A model generated the notes under the pieces. That model was not told the origin of the DNA. It saw nothing but the letters and a program-made list of their open reading frames with translations, and searched no databases. Positions 2,604 through 17,019 of a DNA stretch of 17,913 nt are shown here, in pieces. The DNA comes from a virus (Duplodnaviria; Heunggongvirae; Uroviricota; Caudoviricetes): positions 1 through 17,913 of IMG/VR virus record IMGVR_UViG_2778261300_000005, one strand, 5' to 3'. The stretch's first letter is position 1; each line of letters starts with the position of its first letter. Made by a program: the position numbers and the translations under genes.

Positions 2604-2816
2604 ATGCATACAGTTTCTGAAAATCAGTGCGGTAAATACGCATTAATGCTGCAACAGGCCAGAACCGAAGCACAGGCCGATGCAGCAACGCGCTTTTCGT
2701 CTCATCTTGATGCCATGATTCGCCACATCACAAAGGCGGAGTTATCCCGCGTGGAGATAGTCGAGTTGCTCAGTCAGGAGTCTGCCAAATTCCATAATCT
2801 AGGACTCAATAAATAA
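2604..2816 (+). CDS. Small hypothetical early protein, 70 aa
   Basis: ATG at 2604 preceded by GGAGA. Co-oriented in the early operon. Confidence 0.5.
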
Positions 2817-2830
2817 CAGGGAAGTTGGAG

Positions 2831-3076
2831 ATGACAAATACAAAATGGTTCAGGAAACGCTTAACAGATTATCAACTTTCATTACTTAAAAAATTAGATG
2901 ACAAGACTCCACTACATCCTTCAAGCGATGTCTTCCGCTCCTGTCCTAGTCGTGTGGAAAAAGCATTTATAGCAATGGGGAAATGGGGGCTTGTGACTAA
3001 ATCAAGAGAAGGTTTCTGTATTACCGATAATGGCCGGGAAATGATTGATTCTGCGGAGAGGGCATATAGCGAATGA
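2831..3076 (+). CDS. Small hypothetical protein, about 81 aa
   Basis: The ORF-track start at 2825 is a TTG; ATG at 2831 with AGGGAAG upstream is the likelier start. AT-rich relative to flanking genes. Confidence 0.45.
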   Translation: MTNTKWFRKRLTDYQLSLLKKLDDKTPLHPSSDVFRSCPSRVEKAFIAMGKWGLVTKSREGFCITDNGREMIDSAERAYSE

Positions 3077-3363
3077 AAAATATATTGCTTAATAACTGGC
3101 TGAAGATTTCAGTCATGAAAAATGGTGATTTGTCGCTAGCTGATATTAAACGCGATAAAAACACTGGGGATATGGTGGAATCAACTATAGCCATTTATGC
3201 GGATAAATTAAATCTCCTGTCTGATGTGGTCAATTTACTTGTTAAACGCGCTGTATTTCATAAGCAAATTTCATCCGTGGATGAACTGACAAAATTAACG
3301 ACAGAAATCGCCAGCTATTGCGCTGATGAATTTAAGAAGCTGAACGACAAAAGGAGCTGGTAA
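3073..3363 (+). CDS. Small hypothetical protein, 96 aa, AT-rich
   Basis: ATG at 3073 with GGAGAGGG upstream; start overlaps the previous gene's stop. Noticeably AT-rich codon usage. Confidence 0.5.
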   Translation: MKNILLNNWLKISVMKNGDLSLADIKRDKNTGDMVESTIAIYADKLNLLSDVVNLLVKRAVFHKQISSVDELTKLTTEIASYCADEFKKLNDKRSW

Positions 3364-3859: not shown

Positions 3860-6134
3860 AGCCTCCGGGCGTTTTGTCCCTCCGTCAGCATTTGCTGCAG
3901 GCACCGGTAAGGCGTTTACCGGTGCTTATGCATGGAACGCGCCACGCGAGGCCGTCGGGCGCGAAAGACCCCTTACACGTGACGAGATGCGTCAGGTGCA
4001 AGGTGTTTTATCCACGATTAACCGCCTGCCTTACTTTTTGCGCTCGCTGTTTACTTCACGCTATGACTACATCCGGCGCAATAAAAGCCCGGTGCACGGG
4101 TTTTATTTCCTCACATCCACTTTTCAGCGTCGTTTATGGCCGCGCATTGAGCGCGTTAATCAGCGTCATGAAATGAACACTGACGCGTCGTTGCTGTTTC
4201 TGGCAGAGCGTGACCATTATGCGCGCCTGCCGGGAATGAATGACAAGGAGCTGAAAAAGTTTGCCGCCCGTATCTCATCGCAGCTTTTCATGATGTATGA
4301 GGAACTCTGCGATGCATGGGTTGATGCACATGGCGAGAAAGAATCGCTGTTTACAGATGAGGCGCAGGCGCATCTGTATGGTCATGTTGCTGGCGCTGCA
4401 CGTGCTTTCAATATTTCCCCTCTCTACTGGAAAAAATACCGTAAAGGACAGATGACCACGAGGCAGGCATATTCTGCCATTGCCCGTCTGTTTAACGATG
4501 AGTGGTGGACTCATCAGCTTAAAGGCCAGCGTATGCGCTGGCATGAGGCGTTACTGATTGCTGTCGGGGAGGTCAATAAAGACCGTTCTCCTTATGCCAG
4601 TAAACATGCCATTCGTGATGTGCGTGCACGCCGCCAGGCAAATCTGGAATTTCTTAAATCGTGTGACCTCGAAAACAGGGAAACCGGCGAGCGCATCGAC
4701 CTTATCAGTAAGGTGATGGGCAGTATTTCTAATCCTGAAATTCGCCGGATGGAGCTGATGAACACCATCGCCGGTATTGAGCGTTACGCCGCCGCAGAGG
4801 GTGATGTGGGGATGTTTATCACTCTGACCGCGCCGTCAAAGTATCACCCGACACGTCAGGTCGGAAAAGGCGAAAGTAAAACCGTCCAGCTAAATCACGG
4901 CTGGAATGATGAGGCATTTAATCCAAAGGATGCGCAGCGTTATCTCTGCCGCATCTGGAGCCTGATGCGCACGGCATTCAAGGATAATGATTTACAGGTC
5001 TACGGTTTGCGAGTCGTCGAGCCACACCACGACGGAACGCCGCACTGGCATATGATGCTTTTTTGTAATCCACGCCAGCGTAACCAGATTATCGAAATCA
5101 TGCGTCGCTATGCGCTCAAAGAGGATGGTGACGAAAGAGGAGCCGCGCGAAACCGTTTTCAGGCAAAACACCTTAACCGGGGCGGTGCTGCGGGGTATAT
5201 CGCGAAATACATCTCAAAAAATATCGACGGCTATGCACTGGATGGGCAGCTCGATAACGATACCGGCAGACCGCTGAAAGATACTGCCGCGGCTGTTACC
5301 GCATGGGCGTCAACGTGGCGCATTCCGCAATTTAAAACGGCTGGCCTGCCGACAATGGGTGCTTACCGTGAACTACGCAAATTGCCTCGCGGCGTCAGCA
5401 TTGCTGATGAGTTTGACGAACGCGTCGAGGCTGCACGCGCCGCCGCAGACAGTGGTGATTTTGCGTTGTATATCAGCGCGCAGGGCGGGGCAAATGTCCC
5501 GCGCGATTGTCAGACTGTCAGGGTCGCCCGTAGCCCGTCGGATGACGTTAACGAGTACGAGGAAGAAGTCGAGAGAGTGGTCGGCATTTACGCGCCGCAT
5601 CTCGGCGCGCGTCATATTCATATCACCAGAACCATGGACTGGCGCATTGTGCCGAAAGTGCCGGTCGTTGAGCCTTTGACTTTAAAAAGCGGCATCGCCG
5701 CGCCTCGGAGTCCTGTCAATAACTGTGGAAAGATCACCGGCGGTAATACTTCGTTACCGGCTCCCACGCCTTCTGAGCACGCCGCAGCAGTGCTTAATCT
5801 GGTTGATGACGGTGTTATCGAATGGAATGACCCGGAGGTCGTGAGGGCGCTCAGGGGCGCATTAAAATACGGGCTGAGAACACCAAATCGTCAGCAGAGA
5901 AACGGAAGCCCGTTAAAACCACATGAAATTGCACCATCGGCCAGACTGACCCGGTCGGAAAGAATGCAAATTACCCGTATCCGCGTTGACCTTGCTCAGA
6001 ACGGTATCAGGCCGCAGCGATGGGAGCTTGAGGCGCTGGCGCGTGGCGCGACCGTAAATTATGACGGGAAAAAATTCACGTATCCGGTCGCTGATGAGTG
6101 GCCGGGATTCTCAACAGTAATGGCGCGGACATAA
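3849..6134 (+). CDS. A: Replication initiator protein A (rolling-circle, HUH endonuclease)
   Basis: ATG at 3849 gives 761 aa beginning MAVKASGRFVPPSAFAAGTGK, which matches P2 gpA as I recall it, including its length. Contains the HUH-type metal-binding motif EPHHDGTPHWHMMLF. The ORF-track start at 3807 is a TTG extension. Confidence 0.92.
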   Translation: MAVKASGRFVPPSAFAAGTGKAFTGAYAWNAPREAVGRERPLTRDEMRQVQGVLSTINRLPYFLRSLFTSRYDYIRRNKSPVHGFYFLTSTFQRRLWPRIERVNQRHEMNTDASLLFLAERDHYARLPGMNDKELKKFAARISSQLFMMYEELCDAWVDAHGEKESLFTDEAQAHLYGHVAGAARAFNISPLYWKKYRKGQMTTRQAYSAIARLFNDEWWTHQLKGQRMRWHEALLIAVGEVNKDRSPYASKHAIRDVRARRQANLEFLKSCDLENRETGERIDLISKVMGSISNPEIRRMELMNTIAGIERYAAAEGDVGMFITLTAPSKYHPTRQVGKGESKTVQLNHGWNDEAFNPKDAQRYLCRIWSLMRTAFKDNDLQVYGLRVVEPHHDGTPHWHMMLFCNPRQRNQIIEIMRRYALKEDGDERGAARNRFQAKHLNRGGAAGYIAKYISKNIDGYALDGQLDNDTGRPLKDTAAAVTAWASTWRIPQFKTAGLPTMGAYRELRKLPRGVSIADEFDERVEAARAAADSGDFALYISAQGGANVPRDCQTVRVARSPSDDVNEYEEEVERVVGIYAPHLGARHIHITRTMDWRIVPKVPVVEPLTLKSGIAAPRSPVNNCGKITGGNTSLPAPTPSEHAAAVLNLVDDGVIEWNDPEVVRALRGALKYGLRTPNRQQRNGSPLKPHEIAPSARLTRSERMQITRIRVDLAQNGIRPQRWELEALARGATVNYDGKKFTYPVADEWPGFSTVMART

Positions 6135-6436
6135 TGACAAAGATTCACAAAGTAAAGCTGCACGCAAGATATTTCAACCTTGTGCTGGAGGGAAAAGAAA
6201 CGCACAGAATTTAGGGGGATAGCCGTTATCATGTGTATGAAGCACTTGAAATGTATCTGCATCACTTGGGAGTGTGTCAACGGGGAATTTCCATCTATGT
6301 GATTTTTTGAGAGCAATGCAGTGAAGATAAAGATACTTATTATAAATCAATGTGATAGATGATGCCTCGCAAACGTAAATGATAGTTTTGAAGCTTCAGG
6401 GCTGATGTCGTTCATAAGACTATGTTTACGCTATCA

Positions 6437-6469
6437 TTTATGATAAAAATAATTAATTTTTATCATAAA
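6437..6469. promoter_or_regulatory. Near-perfect 33-bp palindrome (14-bp arms TTTATGATAAAAAT / ATTTTTATCATAAA) directly upstream of the ParB-like gene; candidate operator/promoter
   Basis: Read directly from the sequence; one central mismatch. It lies about 15-50 bp upstream of the ATG at 6485. Related ATGATA/TATCAT half-sites recur at about 6375-6384 and 6431-6444. Confidence 0.35.
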
Positions 6470-6484
6470 GATTCAACAGAGGAT

Positions 6485-7996
6485 ATGTTGATGAATCAAC
6501 TAAAATCAATGAATATCAATAAGTTACTTTTGGATGTTGATAACCCTCGTTTCCCGACGTCAGCAGAAAATCAGCGTGATGCTATTGCCAAGATGCTTGA
6601 CTTGCAGTACGACCGCATTTATCGCTTGGCTAAAGATATTGCTTCGAAAGGTTTAGATCCGTCTGAAAACATATTAGTTTATCCTAGTGAAGAGGAATCT
6701 GGCTTTTTCGTCGTTGCTGAAGGTAATCGTCGAGTTACAGCCCTTAAACTTTTACACTCTCCTAGACTTGCACCAACAGAAAAAGCACGGAAAGCTTTTG
6801 AAAAACTTAAGATTACTCAGCTTAAAGATATTAATGTTATAGATAACTGCGTTCTTTTTGACGATGATGAATATGAGCATTGGGTTAATTTAAAGCATAC
6901 TGGTCAAAATGCTGGAGTTGGAAGAGTTGAATGGACTGCAACAGAAAAAGCACGGCATCTGGCTAGGATGGGTAAGCAGTCATTTGGTAATCAAATACTT
7001 ACATTTATAGAGTTCAATACTGATTTATATAAAGAGATAATTGCTAAAAAAAGACTTTTAAAAATCACAAACATCACGCGTCTTTTTGGTGATTTAAAGG
7101 TGAGGGATTATTTTAATTTAAAAAGCATTAATGGAGTTCTATACTCATATCAGCCTTATGAACGTTTTTGTGCACAATTAAAAAATATTTTAGATGTAAT
7201 GATTGAAGAGGATGATAAAGGTAAGGCTTGTTTTACTGTTAATAGGATTCGTAGCCAAGATGACAGGGTTACATTTATTATTGAACAAAAAATAAAACCT
7301 TCAGAATCTCTTTTAGATAAGCCGTGGAGTTTACTGGAGCCTAAATCTTTTCTTACAGAGAAAAAAGATGATTCTATTGACAAAAATGATGCCTCTGTGA
7401 GTGTAAAGAAAGTAGGTCTTTCAGAAGGTGATGCCTTAAAGAATACAGGTATGGATAAACAGGAAGATGATTATTCTAGACATGTAGGCACAGAAGAGAG
7501 TAAATCTAAAGTTTCGGGTACGGAACAGAATAAAAGCAAGGGAAAAACTCCTCCTAAAGTAGATCGTAATGTGTTGGTGCCATCTTATGTGAAATTTAAT
7601 TTTAGAGGGCATAAAAAATGCTCTAGAATATTTAATGAGCTTAAGTCGCATCTGACATTTGATAATACCCCTAATGCTATCTCAATATTGTTGAGAATAT
7701 TTATAGATCTCTCTGTAAGCACTTTTGTTGAAGAAAACAAGTTACAATTTAAGGAACCGCATAGAACTCCAGGGCTTCATGATAAGGTTAAAATGTGTGC
7801 TAATTTCCTTCGGGAAAATAAAAAGATGACGGGGAGTCAATGTACGGCTGTAATAACTTTCTCGAGCCAAATAACTAAACATGATGGTTCATTGCAGCAG
7901 TATGTACATAACCCACACTTAATTCCCTCAAAAGAGGCTGTCAACACTGAGTGGGATAACTTTGAGTTGTTATTAAGCCTTATTTGGAGTGAGTGA
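6485..7996 (+). CDS. ParB/Srx-like N-terminal domain protein with low-complexity linker and uncharacterised C-terminal domain (cargo gene 1)
   Basis: ORF 6422..7996; likely start ATG 6485 or 6491, with AGAGGA at 6478-6483. N-terminus has ParB-like box motifs (INKLLLDVDNPRF and ILVYP...FVVAEGNRRVTALKLL, compare ParB GERRxRA). Strongly AT-rich, unlike the phage backbone. Confidence 0.7.
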   Translation: MLMNQLKSMNINKLLLDVDNPRFPTSAENQRDAIAKMLDLQYDRIYRLAKDIASKGLDPSENILVYPSEEESGFFVVAEGNRRVTALKLLHSPRLAPTEKARKAFEKLKITQLKDINVIDNCVLFDDDEYEHWVNLKHTGQNAGVGRVEWTATEKARHLARMGKQSFGNQILTFIEFNTDLYKEIIAKKRLLKITNITRLFGDLKVRDYFNLKSINGVLYSYQPYERFCAQLKNILDVMIEEDDKGKACFTVNRIRSQDDRVTFIIEQKIKPSESLLDKPWSLLEPKSFLTEKKDDSIDKNDASVSVKKVGLSEGDALKNTGMDKQEDDYSRHVGTEESKSKVSGTEQNKSKGKTPPKVDRNVLVPSYVKFNFRGHKKCSRIFNELKSHLTFDNTPNAISILLRIFIDLSVSTFVEENKLQFKEPHRTPGLHDKVKMCANFLRENKKMTGSQCTAVITFSSQITKHDGSLQQYVHNPHLIPSKEAVNTEWDNFELLLSLIWSE

Positions 7997-8009
7997 GATT
8001 TGTCTACAT

Positions 8010-8027
8010 CTGGACATGGATGTCCAG
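8010..8027. promoter_or_regulatory. Inverted repeat CTGGACAT-GG-ATGTCCAG between the two cargo genes; candidate operator
   Basis: Perfect 8-bp arms read directly from the sequence, about 40 bp upstream of the methyltransferase ATG. The 2-nt spacer argues for a protein-binding palindrome rather than a hairpin terminator. Confidence 0.3.
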
Positions 8028-8065
8028 AAACTGATAAACTACAAAATCAGGAATGAGAGGGATTT

Positions 8066-8950
8066 ATGAAATTTTATACTCCATTAAGATACCCCGGCGG
8101 GAAAGGTAAGTTATCTTACTTTTTAAAAGATGTTATTGAAAAAAACTCGTTGAATGATGGAGCATATGCAGAACCTTACGCTGGTGGTGCAGGGGTGGCT
8201 TTAGAATTATTATTGGAAGAGTATGTCCGTAAAATCTATATAAATGATGCAGATTTTGCTGTTTATTCTTTTTGGTCATCTGTTGTTAGTGATACTGATG
8301 AGCTTTGCCGACTTATTAGCCGAGCAAAGATAGATATGGATGAATGGTCTTTTCATCGCTATGTTATTTCGAATCCTTCTGAGTTTACTAAGCTTGAGGT
8401 TGGCTTTGCTGCGTTTTTCTTAAATAGAACAAATCGTTCAGGTATTCTCAAGGCGGGGGTTATAGGTGGGAAATCACAAAATGGAAAATGGAAAATGGAT
8501 GTTCGCTTTAACAGGGCGGATTTAATTTCAAGAATTGAGAAGATAGCAAATTATAATCAAAGAATAGTAGTAACTAATCTGGATGCTTTGGATTTTCTTG
8601 ATGCCTTGAATTTTATGGATAATATGGGAAAGGTGGATAAAAATAAAATTCTTTTGTATTTGGATCCTCCTTACTATATTAAAGGGCAAGGGCTTTACAG
8701 GAATTTTTATGAGCATGATGATCATGTATTGGTTATGAAGAAACTCACAGAAATTAATTTCCCAAATTGGCTTGTTTCTTATGATAATGCTAAGGAAATT
8801 AAAGATATTTATAATGAATTTCCGCAAGTTGAGTATTCATTGCAATATACAGCGCATCTCAAAAAATCTGGAGAGGAAGTGATGATTTTTTCTCCTGAAA
8901 TAATTATTCCTAATACCCTGAAAGGGGTCTCAATGCCAACTTGCGCCTGA
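8066..8950 (+). CDS. D12-class (Dam-like) N6-adenine DNA methyltransferase (cargo gene 2)
   Basis: 294 aa; ATG at 8066 preceded by GAGAGGG. N-terminal LRYPGGKGKL and AEPYAGGAGVALELL resemble the E. coli Dam AdoMet-binding region (LKWAGGK, VEPFVGAGSV). FFLNRTNRSG resembles Dam LYLNRYGYNG. The catalytic DPPY motif is present (LYLDPPYY). AT-rich. Confidence 0.85.
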   Translation: MKFYTPLRYPGGKGKLSYFLKDVIEKNSLNDGAYAEPYAGGAGVALELLLEEYVRKIYINDADFAVYSFWSSVVSDTDELCRLISRAKIDMDEWSFHRYVISNPSEFTKLEVGFAAFFLNRTNRSGILKAGVIGGKSQNGKWKMDVRFNRADLISRIEKIANYNQRIVVTNLDALDFLDALNFMDNMGKVDKNKILLYLDPPYYIKGQGLYRNFYEHDDHVLVMKKLTEINFPNWLVSYDNAKEIKDIYNEFPQVEYSLQYTAHLKKSGEEVMIFSPEIIIPNTLKGVSMPTCA

Positions 8951-9097
8951 TTTTACTTATTTTTTGTCAGTAAGTAATTAGTTTGGTGCATTTATTTGCA
9001 TTCATTTTTAAATGCCAGTTCTGGTATCTGACATCAGTGCTGGCGCATTCTGACCATTACTGCTGCACTGCATTTAAAGCCCTGCATGAAGCGGGCG

Positions 9098-9116
9098 GGC
9101 GAGGCGGGGAAAGCAC
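9098..9116. other. cos site (19-nt cohesive end, P2-type)
   Basis: GGCGAGGCGGGGAAAGCAC matches the P2 cohesive-end sequence as I recall it. It lies between the cargo module and the leftward Q gene, as in P2. Confidence 0.6.
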
Positions 9117-9258
9117 TGCGCGCTGGCGGTGGTGCTGATTTTATTTTTTCAGCGTCTGAGCGCGTCGTGATGGCGTTTAGATTGTGCGCCGGGGTGTTGG
9201 TGTGTCTGCGGGATGTTTTGTGCGGTGGTGAGCGTGTGAGGGCGTGATGACGGGGTGT

Positions 9259-9280
9259 AAAAAAGCCGCCCGCAGGCGGC
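9259..9280 (-). terminator. Rho-independent terminator downstream of Q (minus strand)
   Basis: Minus strand reads GCCGCC-TGCG-GGCGGC followed by TTTTTT, immediately after the Q stop codon at 9286-9288. Confidence 0.5.
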
Positions 9281-9285
9281 GATGT

Positions 9286-10320
9286 TCAGCCGTTGTCAGT
9301 GTCCAGTGAGTAGTTTTTAAAGCGGATGACCTCCTGACCGAGCCAGCCGTTTATCTCGCGGATCCTGTCCTGTAACGGGATAAGCTCATTGCGGACAAAG
9401 ACCTTTGCCACTTTCTCAATATCACCCAGCGACCCGACGTTCTCCGGCTTGCCGCCCATCAACTGAAAGGGGATGCGGTGCGCGTCCAGCAGGTCTGCGG
9501 CACTGGCTTTTTTGATATTAAAAAAATCGTCCTTCGTCGCCACTTCACTGAGCGGGATAATTTTAATGCCGTCGGCTTTCCCTTGTGGGGCATAGAGAAA
9601 CAGATTTTTAAAGTTGTTGCGGCCTTTCGACTTCACCATGTTTTCGCGAAGCATTTCGATATCGTTGCGATCCTGCACGGCATCGGTGACGTACATGATG
9701 TATCCGGCATGTGCGCCGTTTTCGTAATACTTGCGGCGGAACAGCGTGGCCGATTCATTCAGCCAGGCAGAGTTAAGGGCGCTGAGATATTCCGGCAGGC
9801 CGTACAGCTCCTGATTAATATCCGGCTCCAGCAGGTGAAACACGGAGCCGGGTGCGAAGGCTGTCGGCTCGTTGAAGGACGGCACCCACCAGTAAACATC
9901 CTCTTCCACGCCACGGCGGGTATATTTTGCCGGTGAGGTTTCCAGTCTGATGACCTTACCGGTGGTGCTGTAACGCTTTTCCAGAAACGCATTACCGAAC
10001 ACCAGAAAATCCAGCACAAAGCGGCTGAAATCCTGCTGGGAAAGCCACGGATGCGGGATAAATGTCGAGGCCAGAATATTGCGTTTGACGTAAATCGGGG
10101 AGCTGTGATGCACGGCAGCACGCAGGCTTTTTGCCAGACCGGTAAAGCTGACCGGTGGCTCATACCATCTGCCGTTACTGATGCACTCAACGTAATCCAG
10201 AATGTCACGGCGGTCGAGTACCGGCACCGGCTCGCCAAAGGTGAATGCTTCCATTTTCGGGGCGCTGGCGGTGATTGTTTTTGCCGCAGGTCGCGGTGTT
10301 TTCCCTTTTTTCTTGCTCAT
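9286..10320 (-). CDS. Q: Portal protein (capsid portal vertex), P2 gpQ
   Basis: 344 aa, the same length as P2 Q as I recall; leftward orientation adjacent to cos; start overlaps the P stop by 1 nt. Confidence 0.9.
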   Translation of the reverse strand: MSKKKGKTPRPAAKTITASAPKMEAFTFGEPVPVLDRRDILDYVECISNGRWYEPPVSFTGLAKSLRAAVHHSSPIYVKRNILASTFIPHPWLSQQDFSRFVLDFLVFGNAFLEKRYSTTGKVIRLETSPAKYTRRGVEEDVYWWVPSFNEPTAFAPGSVFHLLEPDINQELYGLPEYLSALNSAWLNESATLFRRKYYENGAHAGYIMYVTDAVQDRNDIEMLRENMVKSKGRNNFKNLFLYAPQGKADGIKIIPLSEVATKDDFFNIKKASAADLLDAHRIPFQLMGGKPENVGSLGDIEKVAKVFVRNELIPLQDRIREINGWLGQEVIRFKNYSLDTDNG

Positions 10321-15814: not shown

Positions 15815-16096
15815 ATGACAGCAGAAGAAAAAAGCGTCCTGTCGCTTTTCATGATTGGGGTGCTGATTGTTGTCGGCAAGGTGCTTGCCGGTGGTGAACC
15901 CATCACCCCGCGTCTGTTTATCGGGCGCATGTTGCTCGGTGGTTTTGTCTCGATGGTTGCCGGTGTTGTTCTGGTGCAGTTTCCTGACCTGTCACTGCCT
16001 GCGGTGTGCGGCATCGGCTCCATGCTGGGTATCGCCGGTTATCAGGTGATTGAGATTGCCATTCAGCGCCGCTTTAAGGGCAGGGGGAAACCGTAA
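15815..16096 (+). CDS. Y: Holin, P2 gpY
   Basis: 93 aa with hydrophobic membrane segments (LSLFMIGVLIVVGKVLAGG...); immediately upstream of the endolysin; TAATG overlap with the K start. Confidence 0.75.
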   Translation: MTAEEKSVLSLFMIGVLIVVGKVLAGGEPITPRLFIGRMLLGGFVSMVAGVVLVQFPDLSLPAVCGIGSMLGIAGYQVIEIAIQRRFKGRGKP

Positions 16097-17019
16097 TGCC
16101 GGTAATTAACACGCATCAGAATATCGCCGCCTTTCTCGACATGCTGGCAGTGTCCGAAGGGACGGCGAATCATCCGCTGACGAAAAACCGTGGCTATGAC
16201 GTGATAGTCACCGGACTGGACGGGAAGCCGGAAATCTTCACCGACTACAGTGACCACCCGTTCGCGCATGGCCGACCGGCGAAGGTGTTTAACCGTCGCG
16301 GTGAAAAATCCACGGCCTCCGGTCGCTATCAGCAGCTTTACCTGTTCTGGCCGCATTACCGCAAACAGCTTGCCCTGCCGGATTTCAGTCCGTTGTCACA
16401 GGACAGGCTCGCCATTCAGTTGATCCGCGAACGCGGTGCACTGGATGACATCCGGGCGGGACGCATTGAGCGCGCCATTTCACGCTGTCGCAATATCTGG
16501 GCGTCCCTGCCGGGTGCCGGTTACGGTCAGCGTGAGCATTCACTGGAAAAACTGGTCACCGTCTGGCGTACCGGCTTAAACGGAGTAAACACCATGAAGA
16601 AATTATCCCTTTCACTGATGCTGAACGTGTCGCTGGCGCTGATGCTGGCACTGTCCCTGATTTACCCGCAGAGCGTGGCCGTCAGTTTTGTCGCTGCCTG
16701 GGCGATTCTGGCGACGGTTATCTGTGTGGTTGCCGGTGGTGTCGGCGTGTATGCCACTGAGTATGTGCTGGAACGCTACGGGCGGGAGCTGCCGCCGGAA
16801 TCGCTGGCCGTGAAGATTGTCACGGCGCTGTTTTTGCAGCCGGTGCCGTGGCGCAGACGGGCGGCGGCTCTGGTGGTGATGGTGGCGACGTTTATCGCGC
16901 TGGTCGCCGCCGGGTGGATTTTTACCGCGCTGATTTATCTCGTGGCGTCGGTGTTCTTCCGGCTGATACGTAAAGCCTGTCGTCAGCGTCTTGAGGGGCG
17001 GGAATTATGTCAAAGCTGA
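16096..17019 (+). CDS. K: Endolysin (P2 gpK-like) whose reading frame continues without a stop into the LysA-like membrane protein (307-aa continuous ORF)
   Basis: N-terminal 165-166 residues (MPVINTHQNIAAFLDMLAVSEGT...) are the P2 K-type endolysin. The frame stays open through ATG 16594 into a hydrophobic 141-aa LysA-like region and ends at TGA 17017-17019. Confidence 0.75.
   Translation: MPVINTHQNIAAFLDMLAVSEGTANHPLTKNRGYDVIVTGLDGKPEIFTDYSDHPFAHGRPAKVFNRRGEKSTASGRYQQLYLFWPHYRKQLALPDFSPLSQDRLAIQLIRERGALDDIRAGRIERAISRCRNIWASLPGAGYGQREHSLEKLVTVWRTGLNGVNTMKKLSLSLMLNVSLALMLALSLIYPQSVAVSFVAAWAILATVICVVAGGVGVYATEYVLERYGRELPPESLAVKIVTALFLQPVPWRRRAAALVVMVATFIALVAAGWIFTALIYLVASVFFRLIRKACRQRLEGRELCQS
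16594..17019 (+). CDS. lysA: LysA-like membrane protein (antiholin/lysis-timing), possibly expressed from the internal ATG
   Basis: Internal ATG at 16594 gives 141 aa (MKKLSLSLMLNVSLALMLAL...) with multiple predicted transmembrane segments; same length as P2 LysA as I recall. Confidence 0.6.
   Translation: MKKLSLSLMLNVSLALMLALSLIYPQSVAVSFVAAWAILATVICVVAGGVGVYATEYVLERYGRELPPESLAVKIVTALFLQPVPWRRRAAALVVMVATFIALVAAGWIFTALIYLVASVFFRLIRKACRQRLEGRELCQS

Follow-up and report, generated by a model that had tools for sequence, protein, structure and literature searches.

The AT-rich interval between P2 gene A and cos in the P2-like prophage analysed here is very probably an intact PD-λ-5 anti-phage system, carried as moron cargo in defence hotspot #1, between gpA and cos/portal. 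The gene pair is not new; it was named and shown to work in 2022. We found nothing that speaks against the PD-λ-5 identity. In the following, the window is the whole stretch of 17,913 nucleotides that was analysed, and all positions refer to it. The features of the interval are as follows:

6134: end of P2 gene A (Pfam Phage_GPA, E 3e-124)
6134..6214, + strand: truncated DUF3850 gene remnant of 26 codons, translation MTKIHKVKLHARYFNLVLEGKETHRI*
6215..6490, + strand: AT-rich non-coding leader of PD-λ-5A, with inverted repeat, promoter-like site and ribosome-binding site
6491..7996, + strand: PD-λ-5A, 501 aa, with ParB/Srx-fold N-domain, linker and HEPN-fold C-domain
7997..8065, + strand: spacer between PD-λ-5A and PD-λ-5B, with inverted repeat and sigma-70-like promoter element
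8066..8950, + strand: PD-λ-5B, 294 aa, D12-class N6-adenine DNA methyltransferase (PADLOC, Pfam, motifs)
8951..9116, + strand: right junction of the cargo and P2 cos, from the resumption of phage homology and an exact 19-nt string

Location and borders of the insert

Two co-oriented open reading frames, 6422..7996 and 8066..8950, are found on the + strand between P2 gene A and cos. The G+C content is 35.3% over positions 6135-9097, compared with 53.7% in P2 gene A and 56.6% between cos and the end of the window. The original prediction described two co-oriented genes in an AT-rich interval between gene A and cos, and these are seen at 6491-7996 and 8066-8950. The sharp drop in G+C that it reported is real, but less extreme than the claimed 25-30%, as 400-nt windows within the insert range from 29.5 to 39%.

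The DUF3850 remnant begins on the stop codon of P2 gene A. RefSeq labels this stretch in relatives as a frameshifted, incomplete pseudogene. A cargo swap has left the remnant as a scar at its left edge. On this side, alignment with prophages that carry other cargo is confined to 6135-6215, and the left border of the cargo is therefore placed at approximately 6215. On the right side, the match to P2-like phage genomes restarts at approximately 9034-9064. The 19-nt string GGCGAGGCGGGGAAAGCAC, which we take to be the P2 cohesive end (cos), is located at 9098-9116. The earlier proposal that the pair is cargo, brought into the P2 A-to-cos/portal hotspot by horizontal transfer, is supported. The tin and old genes and other cargo of the P2 hotspot occupy the same gpA-cos/portal slot and are likewise prophage-borne defence, but encode proteins unrelated to PD-λ-5 (Rousset et al. 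2022, PMC9122126; Odegrip et al. 2006). The study of the hotspot by Rousset et al. 2022 (PMC9122126) makes no mention of ParB, methylase or DUF3850.

Identification of the PD-λ-5 system

The product of the upstream gene matches the PADLOC model PD-Lambda-5_A (PDLC03998) with an E-value of 5.9e-168, where residues 24-523 of the long open reading frame align to profile positions 1-465 of 466. The downstream product matches PD-Lambda-5_B (PDLC04018) with an E-value of 7.9e-122, and residues 1-286 align to profile positions 1-280 of 291. The genes are ordered PD-λ-5A then PD-λ-5B, both on the + strand and separated by a 69-nt spacer, as expected for PD-λ-5.

PD-λ-5A is identical to the protein of strain A7/ECOR7 (RCQ13837.1) at 497 of 501 residues, and PD-λ-5B to its counterpart (RCQ13838.1) at 291 of 294. 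The methyltransferase of strain A7 (orangutan) is 100% identical to the cluster member bearing accession RCQ13838.1, which is the component given in Table S2 of Vassallo et al. 2022 (PMC9519451). The ECOR7 system has the same two genes in the same order and of the same lengths (501 and 294 aa), with 99.3% DNA identity across the whole 2963-bp interval. It sits in the same slot of a P2-like prophage, next to the same DUF3850 scar, and the order replication endonuclease, DUF3850 remnant, A, B, portal is common to both loci. The differences are four substitutions in the disordered linker of the window PD-λ-5A and three in PD-λ-5B, namely A180V, E251G and V288G (window residue first, then ECOR7). 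None of the seven falls within a conserved motif. The integrase and immunity end of the ECOR7 prophage is unlike that of the window prophage.

The pair is thus not undescribed, because both proteins match full-length PD-Lambda-5 models and are 99% identical to the cloned ECOR7 proteins. The original prediction, which took it for an unnamed system, had itself named a match of both proteins to a characterised system as the outcome that would overturn this view, and the PADLOC search and the ECOR7 identity gave that outcome.

Of 5426 complete E. coli genomes, 22 carry the full 2963 bp at an identity of at least 99.2%, and within this genome set the module is found in prophages only. No match to the interval was found by megablast among 50,697 phage records. 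The family is included in PHROGs as phrog_9592, annotated as unknown function.

Published phenotype

The ECOR7 locus, cloned with its native upstream DNA, protected E. coli K-12 against nine of ten phages, most strongly against T-even phages, and adsorption was unaffected (PMC9519451). The phage used to select PD-λ-5 was λvir. Table S1 of Vassallo lists 'escape plaques: No' for clone λ-51, and the system is labelled 'ParB/HEPN, methyltransferase' with the reading 'RM+Abi' (PMC9519451). The match to this phage-protective locus supports the earlier view of an anti-phage defence module with a methyltransferase partner. Being 99% identical to the ECOR7 allele, the window allele is predicted to act as a phage-resistance system as well. 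It should be noted that the host of the construct had the region containing mrr deleted (PMC9519451), which implies that the methyltransferase really puts non-Dam m6A on the chromosome.

The PD-λ-5A protein

PD-λ-5A starts at the ATG at 6491, which has an AGAGGA ribosome-binding site 7 nt upstream, at 6478-6483. A 524-aa reading from the ATG at 6422 was rejected, since relatives have a 501-aa protein in RefSeq and the PADLOC alignment begins at residue 24 of this longer reading. In brief, residues 1-285 form a ParB/Srx-fold N-domain with a helical DNA-binding-like region, residues 289-350 a disordered low-complexity linker, and residues 355-501 a C-domain with the HEPN helical fold. The AF2 model reaches a pLDDT of 85 over the full protein and of 92 within the C-domain, and structurally it comes closest to KorB, a repressor and partition protein. 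We found no folds in the protein other than ParB and HEPN.

The N-domain carries a GNRR motif as E77-G-N-R-R81. This loop, E77-G78-N79-R80-R81, is of the (D/E)GxxR / GxRR type; all 81 sequences compared have it unchanged, together with N18 and R20. Across these 81 homologues from many phyla the invariant residues are N18, R20, E77-R81, W131, H136, G142, W148, R197 and R402. A Pfam hmmscan gave no match to ParBc (PF02195) for the window protein at E <= 0.1, and none at E <= 0.05 for 33 family members including it. A search of the PDB with a family profile gave chance matches only (E >= 0.06). Published HHpred results assign ParB to residues 6-89 with 96.4% probability (PMC9519451). The ParB/Srx-like N-terminus of the original prediction is borne out by the fold and the GNRR motif, while the Pfam ParBc check that it suggested is negative despite the ParB-like fold, and the C-terminal HEPN domain had been missed.

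Within the HEPN-fold domain, R402 is invariant, 80 of 81 sequences share H473, and E383 is near-invariant. We did not find the arginine of the HEPN Rx4-6H motif in the 4-6 residues upstream of H473. At position 469, four residues ahead of H473, 43 of the 81 sequences have N, 27 have H and 10 have Q, and R never occurs; the invariant R402 is on a helix other than that of H473. RNase activity is thus not assured, as the domain is without the Rx4-6H arginine. Some HEPN families in the 2013 survey are likewise without this arginine (Anantharaman et al. 2013, PMC3710099).

The PD-λ-5B methyltransferase

PD-λ-5B matches Pfam PF02086 with an E-value of 4.4e-16 and 59.8 bits, against a gathering cut-off of 22. 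It contains the AdoMet motif EPYAGGAG at residues 36-43 and DPPY at residues 200-203, in agreement with the D12-class methyltransferase with a DPPY motif that had been predicted. Against the Dam model, NCBIfam TIGR00571, it scored 47.1 bits, which is below the cut-off of 114.85, and we rejected an orthologue of Dam (GATC) on this score. The methylation pattern is probably non-GATC, as argued by the deletion of the mrr region in the host of the clone.

Non-coding regions

The leader contains a promoter-like site at 6425-6453, a candidate promoter for PD-λ-5A, and, overlapping it, an inverted repeat whose 14-nt arms match perfectly (6437-6450 / 6456-6469). A generic promoter scan of positions 6000-9400 gave 14 sites where 10.3 +/- 3.5 are expected, which is not above chance, and a promoter upstream of PD-λ-5A thus stays unproven. 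The fragment cloned by Vassallo starts 272 bp upstream of the PD-λ-5A start, corresponding by offset to approximately position 6219 in the window.

Within the spacer lie an inverted repeat with perfect 9-nt arms (8009-8017 / 8020-8028) and, at 8011-8040, a sigma-70-like element consisting of TGGACA, 18 nt and TG-A-TAAACT. The pattern TGGnCA-N16-18-TnnnnT is present in nine of the 21 homologous loci with a long spacer; shuffled sequences averaged 0.13 and never exceeded 2. Based on this comparison, we suggest that the methyltransferase has its own conserved promoter-like element, which may function as a promoter. Among the promoter candidates, the spacer element is the only one backed by comparison across loci.

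Homologous loci

Homologues of PD-λ-5A are found from Proteobacteria to Archaea, and throughout bacterial phyla and in some archaea their linkage to the methyltransferase is near-absolute. Of 76 loci that could be evaluated, drawn from many phyla, 75 have a D12 methyltransferase immediately next to the PD-λ-5A homologue and all 76 have one within 5 kb; in 72 of the 76 the genes are adjacent and co-oriented, A then B. The two genes overlap or abut in approximately 40 of 74 loci. In 84 neighbourhoods the PD-λ-5A homologue and the methyltransferase are the only conserved genes. We did not find a third conserved component among these 84 loci, where the next commonest neighbour is an AAA_15/AAA_21 ATPase (9/84), nor a conserved restriction endonuclease gene of the PD-(D/E)XK, HNH, GIY-YIG or PLD kind.

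Members of the family sit in chromosomal islands and prophages rather than in partition loci of plasmids. The ParA Walker A motif KGGxGK[ST] is absent from open reading frames of at least 150 aa in the 84 homologous loci, and also from the window. We rejected a partition function because no ParA is present.

Proposed mechanism and alternatives

We suggest, tentatively and as a reading with not quite an even chance of being right, that PD-λ-5 is a methylation-based self/non-self system in which a ParB-like sensor is fused to a HEPN effector. PD-λ-5B would methylate a specific non-GATC adenine motif and so mark self DNA, and its transcription, partly from its own promoter, would secure the modification. 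PD-λ-5A would be a single-chain sensor-effector. Its ParB/KorB-like N-domain, with invariant NPR and EGNRR loops of a kind that is NTP-binding and/or catalytic in the superfamily, may together with the adjoining helical region engage DNA and read the absence of the mark. The missing mark would then turn on the C-terminal HEPN-fold domain, with its R402, H473 and E383, which would cut RNA and thereby abort the infection. A nicking activity on DNA may reside in the ParB domain as well. Taken as a whole, the scheme would be that of restriction-modification with the restriction arm swapped for a ParB-HEPN fusion.

Listed as backing for this mechanism are the AF2 confidence, the invariance of the motifs, the linkage of the methyltransferase, the promoter-like element in the spacer and the Dam score below cut-off. 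Against it are the HEPN domain without the Rx4-6H arginine, the plain HMM scan without a Pfam ParBc match, and the finding that T-even DNA (glucosyl-hmC) is restricted most, which is unusual for restriction that reads sequence. In addition, classical restriction-modification yields modified escape plaques, and none are reported for PD-λ-5. It is conceivable, if somewhat doubtful, that PD-λ-5A is a ParB/KorB-type nucleotide-gated DNA clamp that reads the methylation of the adenine motif, where unmethylated DNA would turn on a non-canonical R402/H473 HEPN nuclease.

An unlikely alternative to the sensor-effector reading is plain type II-like restriction-modification, in which the ParB-like domain would be a DNase acting on unmethylated phage DNA to give direct immunity, and the HEPN fold would be non-catalytic and serve dimerisation or regulation. 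The strict linkage of the methyltransferase, the invariant EGNRR loop, the missing canonical HEPN arginine and the mrr-region deletion in the host of the clone all fit such a system, and nuclease-active ParB/Srx proteins exist in the literature; however, R402, H473 and E383 are conserved like the ParB loop, which argues for a working HEPN site, and the 84 loci hold no recognisable restriction endonuclease partner that is conserved. The absence of escape plaques also weighs against it, as does the strongest protection being against T-even phages, whose modified DNA resists most type II enzymes. The lack of escape plaques, the broad range over unrelated phages and the strict pairing would instead suit a guard of the PrrC/EcoprrI kind, where the methyltransferase restrains PD-λ-5A by contact, methylation is secondary, and disturbance by a phage anti-restriction factor, SAM depletion or host shut-off frees the HEPN toxin. 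The 'RM+Abi' reading of the discoverers (PMC9519451) points this way, as does the HEPN survey, which argues that restriction-modification-linked HEPN domains act like PrrC (PMC3710099). We nevertheless consider a guard quite improbable, given that there is no sign of a complex and that the catalytic motifs of the methyltransferase are intact; in the window clade, its own promoter-like element fits a modification that is needed in its own right.

T-even phages degrade host DNA, and PD-λ-5 is strongest against them. Methylation could then serve as an alarm, where chromosome breakdown by the phage would free m6A nucleotides that enter the NTP pocket of the ParB-like domain and turn on HEPN. The ParB fold does bind nucleotides, and a 2026 preprint describes a different E. 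coli system that is triggered by m6-dAMP from phage-induced chromosome breakdown. This would, however, make a dedicated non-Dam methyltransferase redundant in E. coli, which already makes Dam m6A, and the selecting phage λvir does not degrade the host chromosome; we regard an alarm as highly improbable. Hardly credible at all is a role outside defence, with a ParB-type partition or regulatory protein and an orphan methyltransferase acting in prophage maintenance or gene control. KorB as the best structural match, the perfect palindrome in front of PD-λ-5A and the naming of a homologue by one source as an 'IbrB-like-binding regulator' could be read in its favour, but cloning of the 99%-identical locus by itself is enough for phage resistance, so that the idea is in practice already refuted. 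The fused HEPN domain, the chromosomal island and prophage contexts and the absence of a ParA-type Walker A motif (open reading frames of at least 150 aa, 84 homologous loci) speak against it as well.

Relation to other systems

The architecture follows the same logic as GmrSD, SspE and BrxU (DUF262 ParB-like NTPase and HNH nuclease) and PD-T4-2 (DUF262 protein and HEPN protein). In these systems a ParB/Srx N-domain with a (D/E)GxxR loop is a nucleotide-dependent sensor or regulator placed before a nuclease effector, and they deal with modified versus unmodified DNA. PD-λ-5A differs from the CTP-dependent clamps KorB and ParB in having a fused HEPN domain and a linked methyltransferase, and no ParA partner, identified parS or Pfam ParBc match.

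PD-λ-5 resembles PrrC-EcoprrI and pairings of restriction-modification with HEPN in that a DNA-modification module is coupled to a HEPN-fold effector. PrrC, however, works with an ABC ATPase together with a full type I restriction-modification system, whereas PD-λ-5 has two genes only, no separate restriction enzyme and a HEPN site without the canonical arginine. The association of ParB, HEPN and methylase was catalogued computationally earlier (Anantharaman et al. 2013, PMC3710099), including ParB-HEPN fusions of the Saro_3948 type and the MAE_28990 HEPN, whose operons also encode a ParB nuclease and a DNA methylase (PMC3710099).

Implications

The window adds one more genome with a catalogued defence system, which PADLOC and DefenseFinder would label automatically. 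The literature on the mechanism of PD-λ-5 or on ParB-HEPN-methylase systems gave surveys and reviews only, and no biochemical work. The two-domain model, the invariant residues, the non-canonical HEPN site, the linkage and the promoter-like element of the methyltransferase are targets for work on the mechanism. If the idea of a ParB sensor and a HEPN effector is right, PD-λ-5 would offer a minimal model for abortive infection gated by methylation. If the clamp reading is true, it would be a two-gene restriction-modification system that kills by cleaving RNA and not DNA, and thus a new mechanistic class of methylation-dependent immunity, though PD-λ-5 itself is already named.

Identity and boundaries of the defence cargo

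The flanking genes are those of a P2-like prophage, with Pfam matches to an integrase, a Cox regulator, Phage_GPA (E 3e-124), a portal protein, gpP-type terminase domains and a P2-family major capsid protein. The 19-nt string at 9098-9116 is presumably the P2 cohesive end. The ORF list bears out two co-oriented genes between position 6134 and cos.

Features in and beside the cargo
ends at 6134, 775-codon ORF left of the cargo
6134-6214, DUF3850 (ASCH-like) gene remnant of 26 codons, beginning on the P2 gene A stop codon
6422-7996, + strand, ORF 1 of the cargo (PD-λ-5A)
8011-8040, promoter-like element of the methyltransferase gene
8066-8950, + strand, ORF 2 of the cargo (PD-λ-5B, a D12-class methyltransferase)
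9286-10320, portal gene, divergent from the cargo genes

The G+C content is 35.3% in 6135-9097, against 53.7% for P2 gene A and 56.6% for the part of the window from cos onwards; the sharp drop noted earlier is present, but the figure of 25-30% was too low. PD-λ-5A most likely begins at ATG 6491 and is 501 aa long, since AGAGGA lies 7 nt upstream, RefSeq places the start there in relatives and the alignment to the PADLOC profile also begins at this point.

The left cargo edge is at about 6215, beyond which prophages with other cargo do not align, and the right edge at about 9034-9064, where alignment to P2-like phage genomes begins again. The DUF3850 stretch (6134-6214) is the sole part common to prophages with other cargo (91% identity), and the remnant marks where recombination bounds the hotspot on the left. 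In relatives the same truncated stretch is present and RefSeq lists it as a pseudogene. Between cos and the portal gene, immediately 3' of the latter, is a strong terminator-like hairpin (GCCGCCTGCGGGCGGC and then a T run; 9265-9282, - strand).

Both proteins are matched over their full length by PADLOC profiles, PD-λ-5A by PD-Lambda-5_A (PDLC03998, E 5.9e-168) and PD-λ-5B by PD-Lambda-5_B (PDLC04018, E 7.9e-122). PD-λ-5 comes from E. coli ECOR7 (contig QOWS01000001, RCQ13837.1 and RCQ13838.1), where functional selection revealed it, and is labelled 'ParB/HEPN, methyltransferase' in a supplementary table (Vassallo et al. 2022, PMC9519451). Of 5426 complete E. coli genomes, 22 carry the whole 2963-bp interval with at least 99.2% identity, in every case chromosomally. 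One carrier is strain A7 (orangutan), and because its methyltransferase matches the cluster member with accession RCQ13838.1 at 100% identity, we equate its locus with that of ECOR7. The window and A7 share the gene order replication endonuclease, DUF3850 remnant, A, B, portal. Their proteins are identical at 497 of 501 residues (PD-λ-5A) and 291 of 294 (PD-λ-5B); the four differences in PD-λ-5A all fall inside the disordered linker, and the three in PD-λ-5B outside the AdoMet and DPPY motifs. The pair is a member of PD-λ-5 by every criterion tested. The original prediction of an undescribed module was wrong by its own refuting test: both proteins match one characterised, named system, already known from the P2 slot.

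That the pair is a defence module is borne out by the near-identical ECOR7 allele, which protects against phages (PMC9519451). [quoted passage not shown] For this allele, the pair has been shown to be sufficient for broad phage defence. PD-λ-5B very probably acts on the chromosome, because the host of the clone was MG1655 with the mrr-containing region deleted (PMC9519451). The same slot houses four systems of that study (PMC9519451).

The remaining prophage

The integrase, repressor and cox end (1-1872 and 2799-3185) has no close match in the cargo-sharing prophages of ECOR7 (A7) or E. coli MSI001, which align only to 1873-2798 and from 3186 onwards; the backbone around the defence cargo is therefore a P2-like mosaic. 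The integrase ORF extends to the window edge. Positions 16096-17019 lack 14 bp (GGCGTACCGCTGGC) of the MSI001 prophage, with the deletion point at about 16565. This loss joins a 165-aa lysozyme gene in frame to a 141-aa LysA-like membrane protein gene, giving a 307-aa ORF in which Pfam found no family. The fusion is either real decay of the lysis genes as a cassette or an assembly error.

A two-gene unit and its putative regulation

A protein search gave 205 PD-λ-5A homologues, and 426 stretches among one-genome-per-species contigs encode a relative, from Proteobacteria, Bacteroidota, Firmicutes, Chloroflexi, Actinobacteria, Planctomycetes, Acidobacteria and several Archaea. For each of four distant homologues, sharing 29-48% identity, a D12 methyltransferase is encoded directly 3' of A. 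We inspected 80 genome loci for linkage, four of which stop too soon after A to judge. In 72 of the other 76 the methyltransferase lies directly downstream on the same strand; the rest are adjacent and convergent (2), directly upstream (1) or 4 kb upstream (1). When all neighbouring ORFs were clustered, A (84 loci) and the methyltransferase (80) were the only genes conserved, and no ParA-type Walker A motif was found in any ORF of at least 150 aa in these loci. PD-λ-5 is therefore a strict two-gene unit, neither a partition locus nor one piece of a bigger restriction-modification operon. The third-ranking cluster (9 of 84 loci) is an AAA_15/AAA_21 ATPase, encoded 3' of the methyltransferase at one homologous locus (L008 7756-9450; 565 aa, ABC/OLD-like) and likewise in eight others. 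This ATPase gene is probably a defence gene next to PD-λ-5 and not one of its components.

Roughly 40 of 74 loci have the two genes abutting or overlapping. A spacer of at least 45 nt separates them in 21, including the gamma-proteobacterial clade of the window. TGGnCA-N16-18-TnnnnT occurs in 9 of these 21 spacers, often with a TG extension (shuffles: mean 0.13, maximum 2), and the window element was also flagged by a generic promoter scan. We read it as a putative promoter permitting methyltransferase production independent of A. A 9-nt perfect inverted repeat (8009-8028; TCTGGACAT gg ATGTCCAGA), just 3' of the A stop, overlaps its -35-like TGGACA. Several distant loci (L012, L013, L014 and L005) have a different hairpin in the same position, which points to an intergenic attenuator or operator.

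Another perfect inverted repeat, 22 nt 5' of the PD-λ-5A start codon, has 14-nt arms around a 5-nt spacer (6437-6469; TTTATGATAAAAAT aatta ATTTTTATCATAAA) and shares bases with a -10-like AATAAT. It is just partly recognisable in the Edaphovirga locus (68% identical) and could be an operator.

Fold and conserved residues of PD-λ-5A

The AlphaFold model of PD-λ-5A (114 sequences) is confident (pLDDT 85). In brief, it consists of:

residues 1-285, N-terminal domain
residues 289-350, disordered, low-complexity linker
residues 355-501, helical C-domain

The best structural match is KorB, a palindrome-binding repressor, and the C-domain matches HEPN proteins. Modelled separately (pLDDT 92), the C-domain matches nearly only HEPN proteins: Roquin (9.1), AbiA (8.3), YutE (8.2), HepN toxin SO_3166 (8.0), HEPN/MNT toxins (7.8), sacsin (7.7) and Csm6 (7.2). 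The Pfam check originally proposed gave no ParBc match by plain scan in any of 33 family members, and we found no sequence relative in the PDB.

Invariant in 81 sequences are N18, R20, P57, E77-G-N-R-R81, W131, H136, G142, W148, R197 and R402; H473 (80/81), R359 (78/81) and E383 (77/81) are nearly so. The HEPN hallmark Rx4-6H is absent from these sequences, which have N, H or Q, never R, four residues ahead of H473. Either another arginine is in use, R402 being a candidate, or the C-domain does not act as a standard RNase. The motif W-x4-H-T-G-(Q/E)-N-x-G-x-G-x3-W (residues 131-148; window 6881-6934) is (nearly) invariant across phyla and falls in the lowest-confidence part of the modelled N-domain (pLDDT 63-77). 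We know of no nameable counterpart in ParB proteins; it could be a DNA- or methylation-reading loop.

Proposed mechanism

We tentatively suggest an abortive scheme, which as a whole falls a little short of an even chance. PD-λ-5B, which scores below the Dam model cut-off, would put a non-GATC m6A mark on DNA. The ParB/KorB-like domain of PD-λ-5A and the adjoining helical region would engage DNA and sense the absent mark, probably in a nucleotide-dependent manner as in other ParB/Srx proteins. This would activate the HEPN-fold domain, which would cut RNA and abort the infection.

The missing HEPN arginine agrees with a different reading, rather unlikely in our view, in which the ParB domain is a DNase and the HEPN domain non-catalytic; the conserved R402, H473 and E383, the lack of escape plaques and the strong action on T-even DNA fit it poorly. 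It is unlikely that PD-λ-5B holds PD-λ-5A in check by contact, as a PrrC-like guard. A 2026 preprint on m6-dAMP sensing prompted us to consider methylated nucleotides as the alarm signal, which seems improbable, and a non-defence role, contradicted by the published phenotype, is scarcely credible.

PD-λ-5 would work like the pairings of restriction-modification with HEPN listed in a 2013 survey, among them ParB-HEPN fusions and a HEPN family whose operons also encode a ParB nuclease and a DNA methylase (PMC3710099). It also resembles GmrSD, SspE and BrxU, which are ParB-like-NTPase plus nuclease proteins, but differs from them in its HEPN effector and its own methyltransferase. Discovery potential lies solely in the mechanism, which can be tested directly with the residues and linkage given above.
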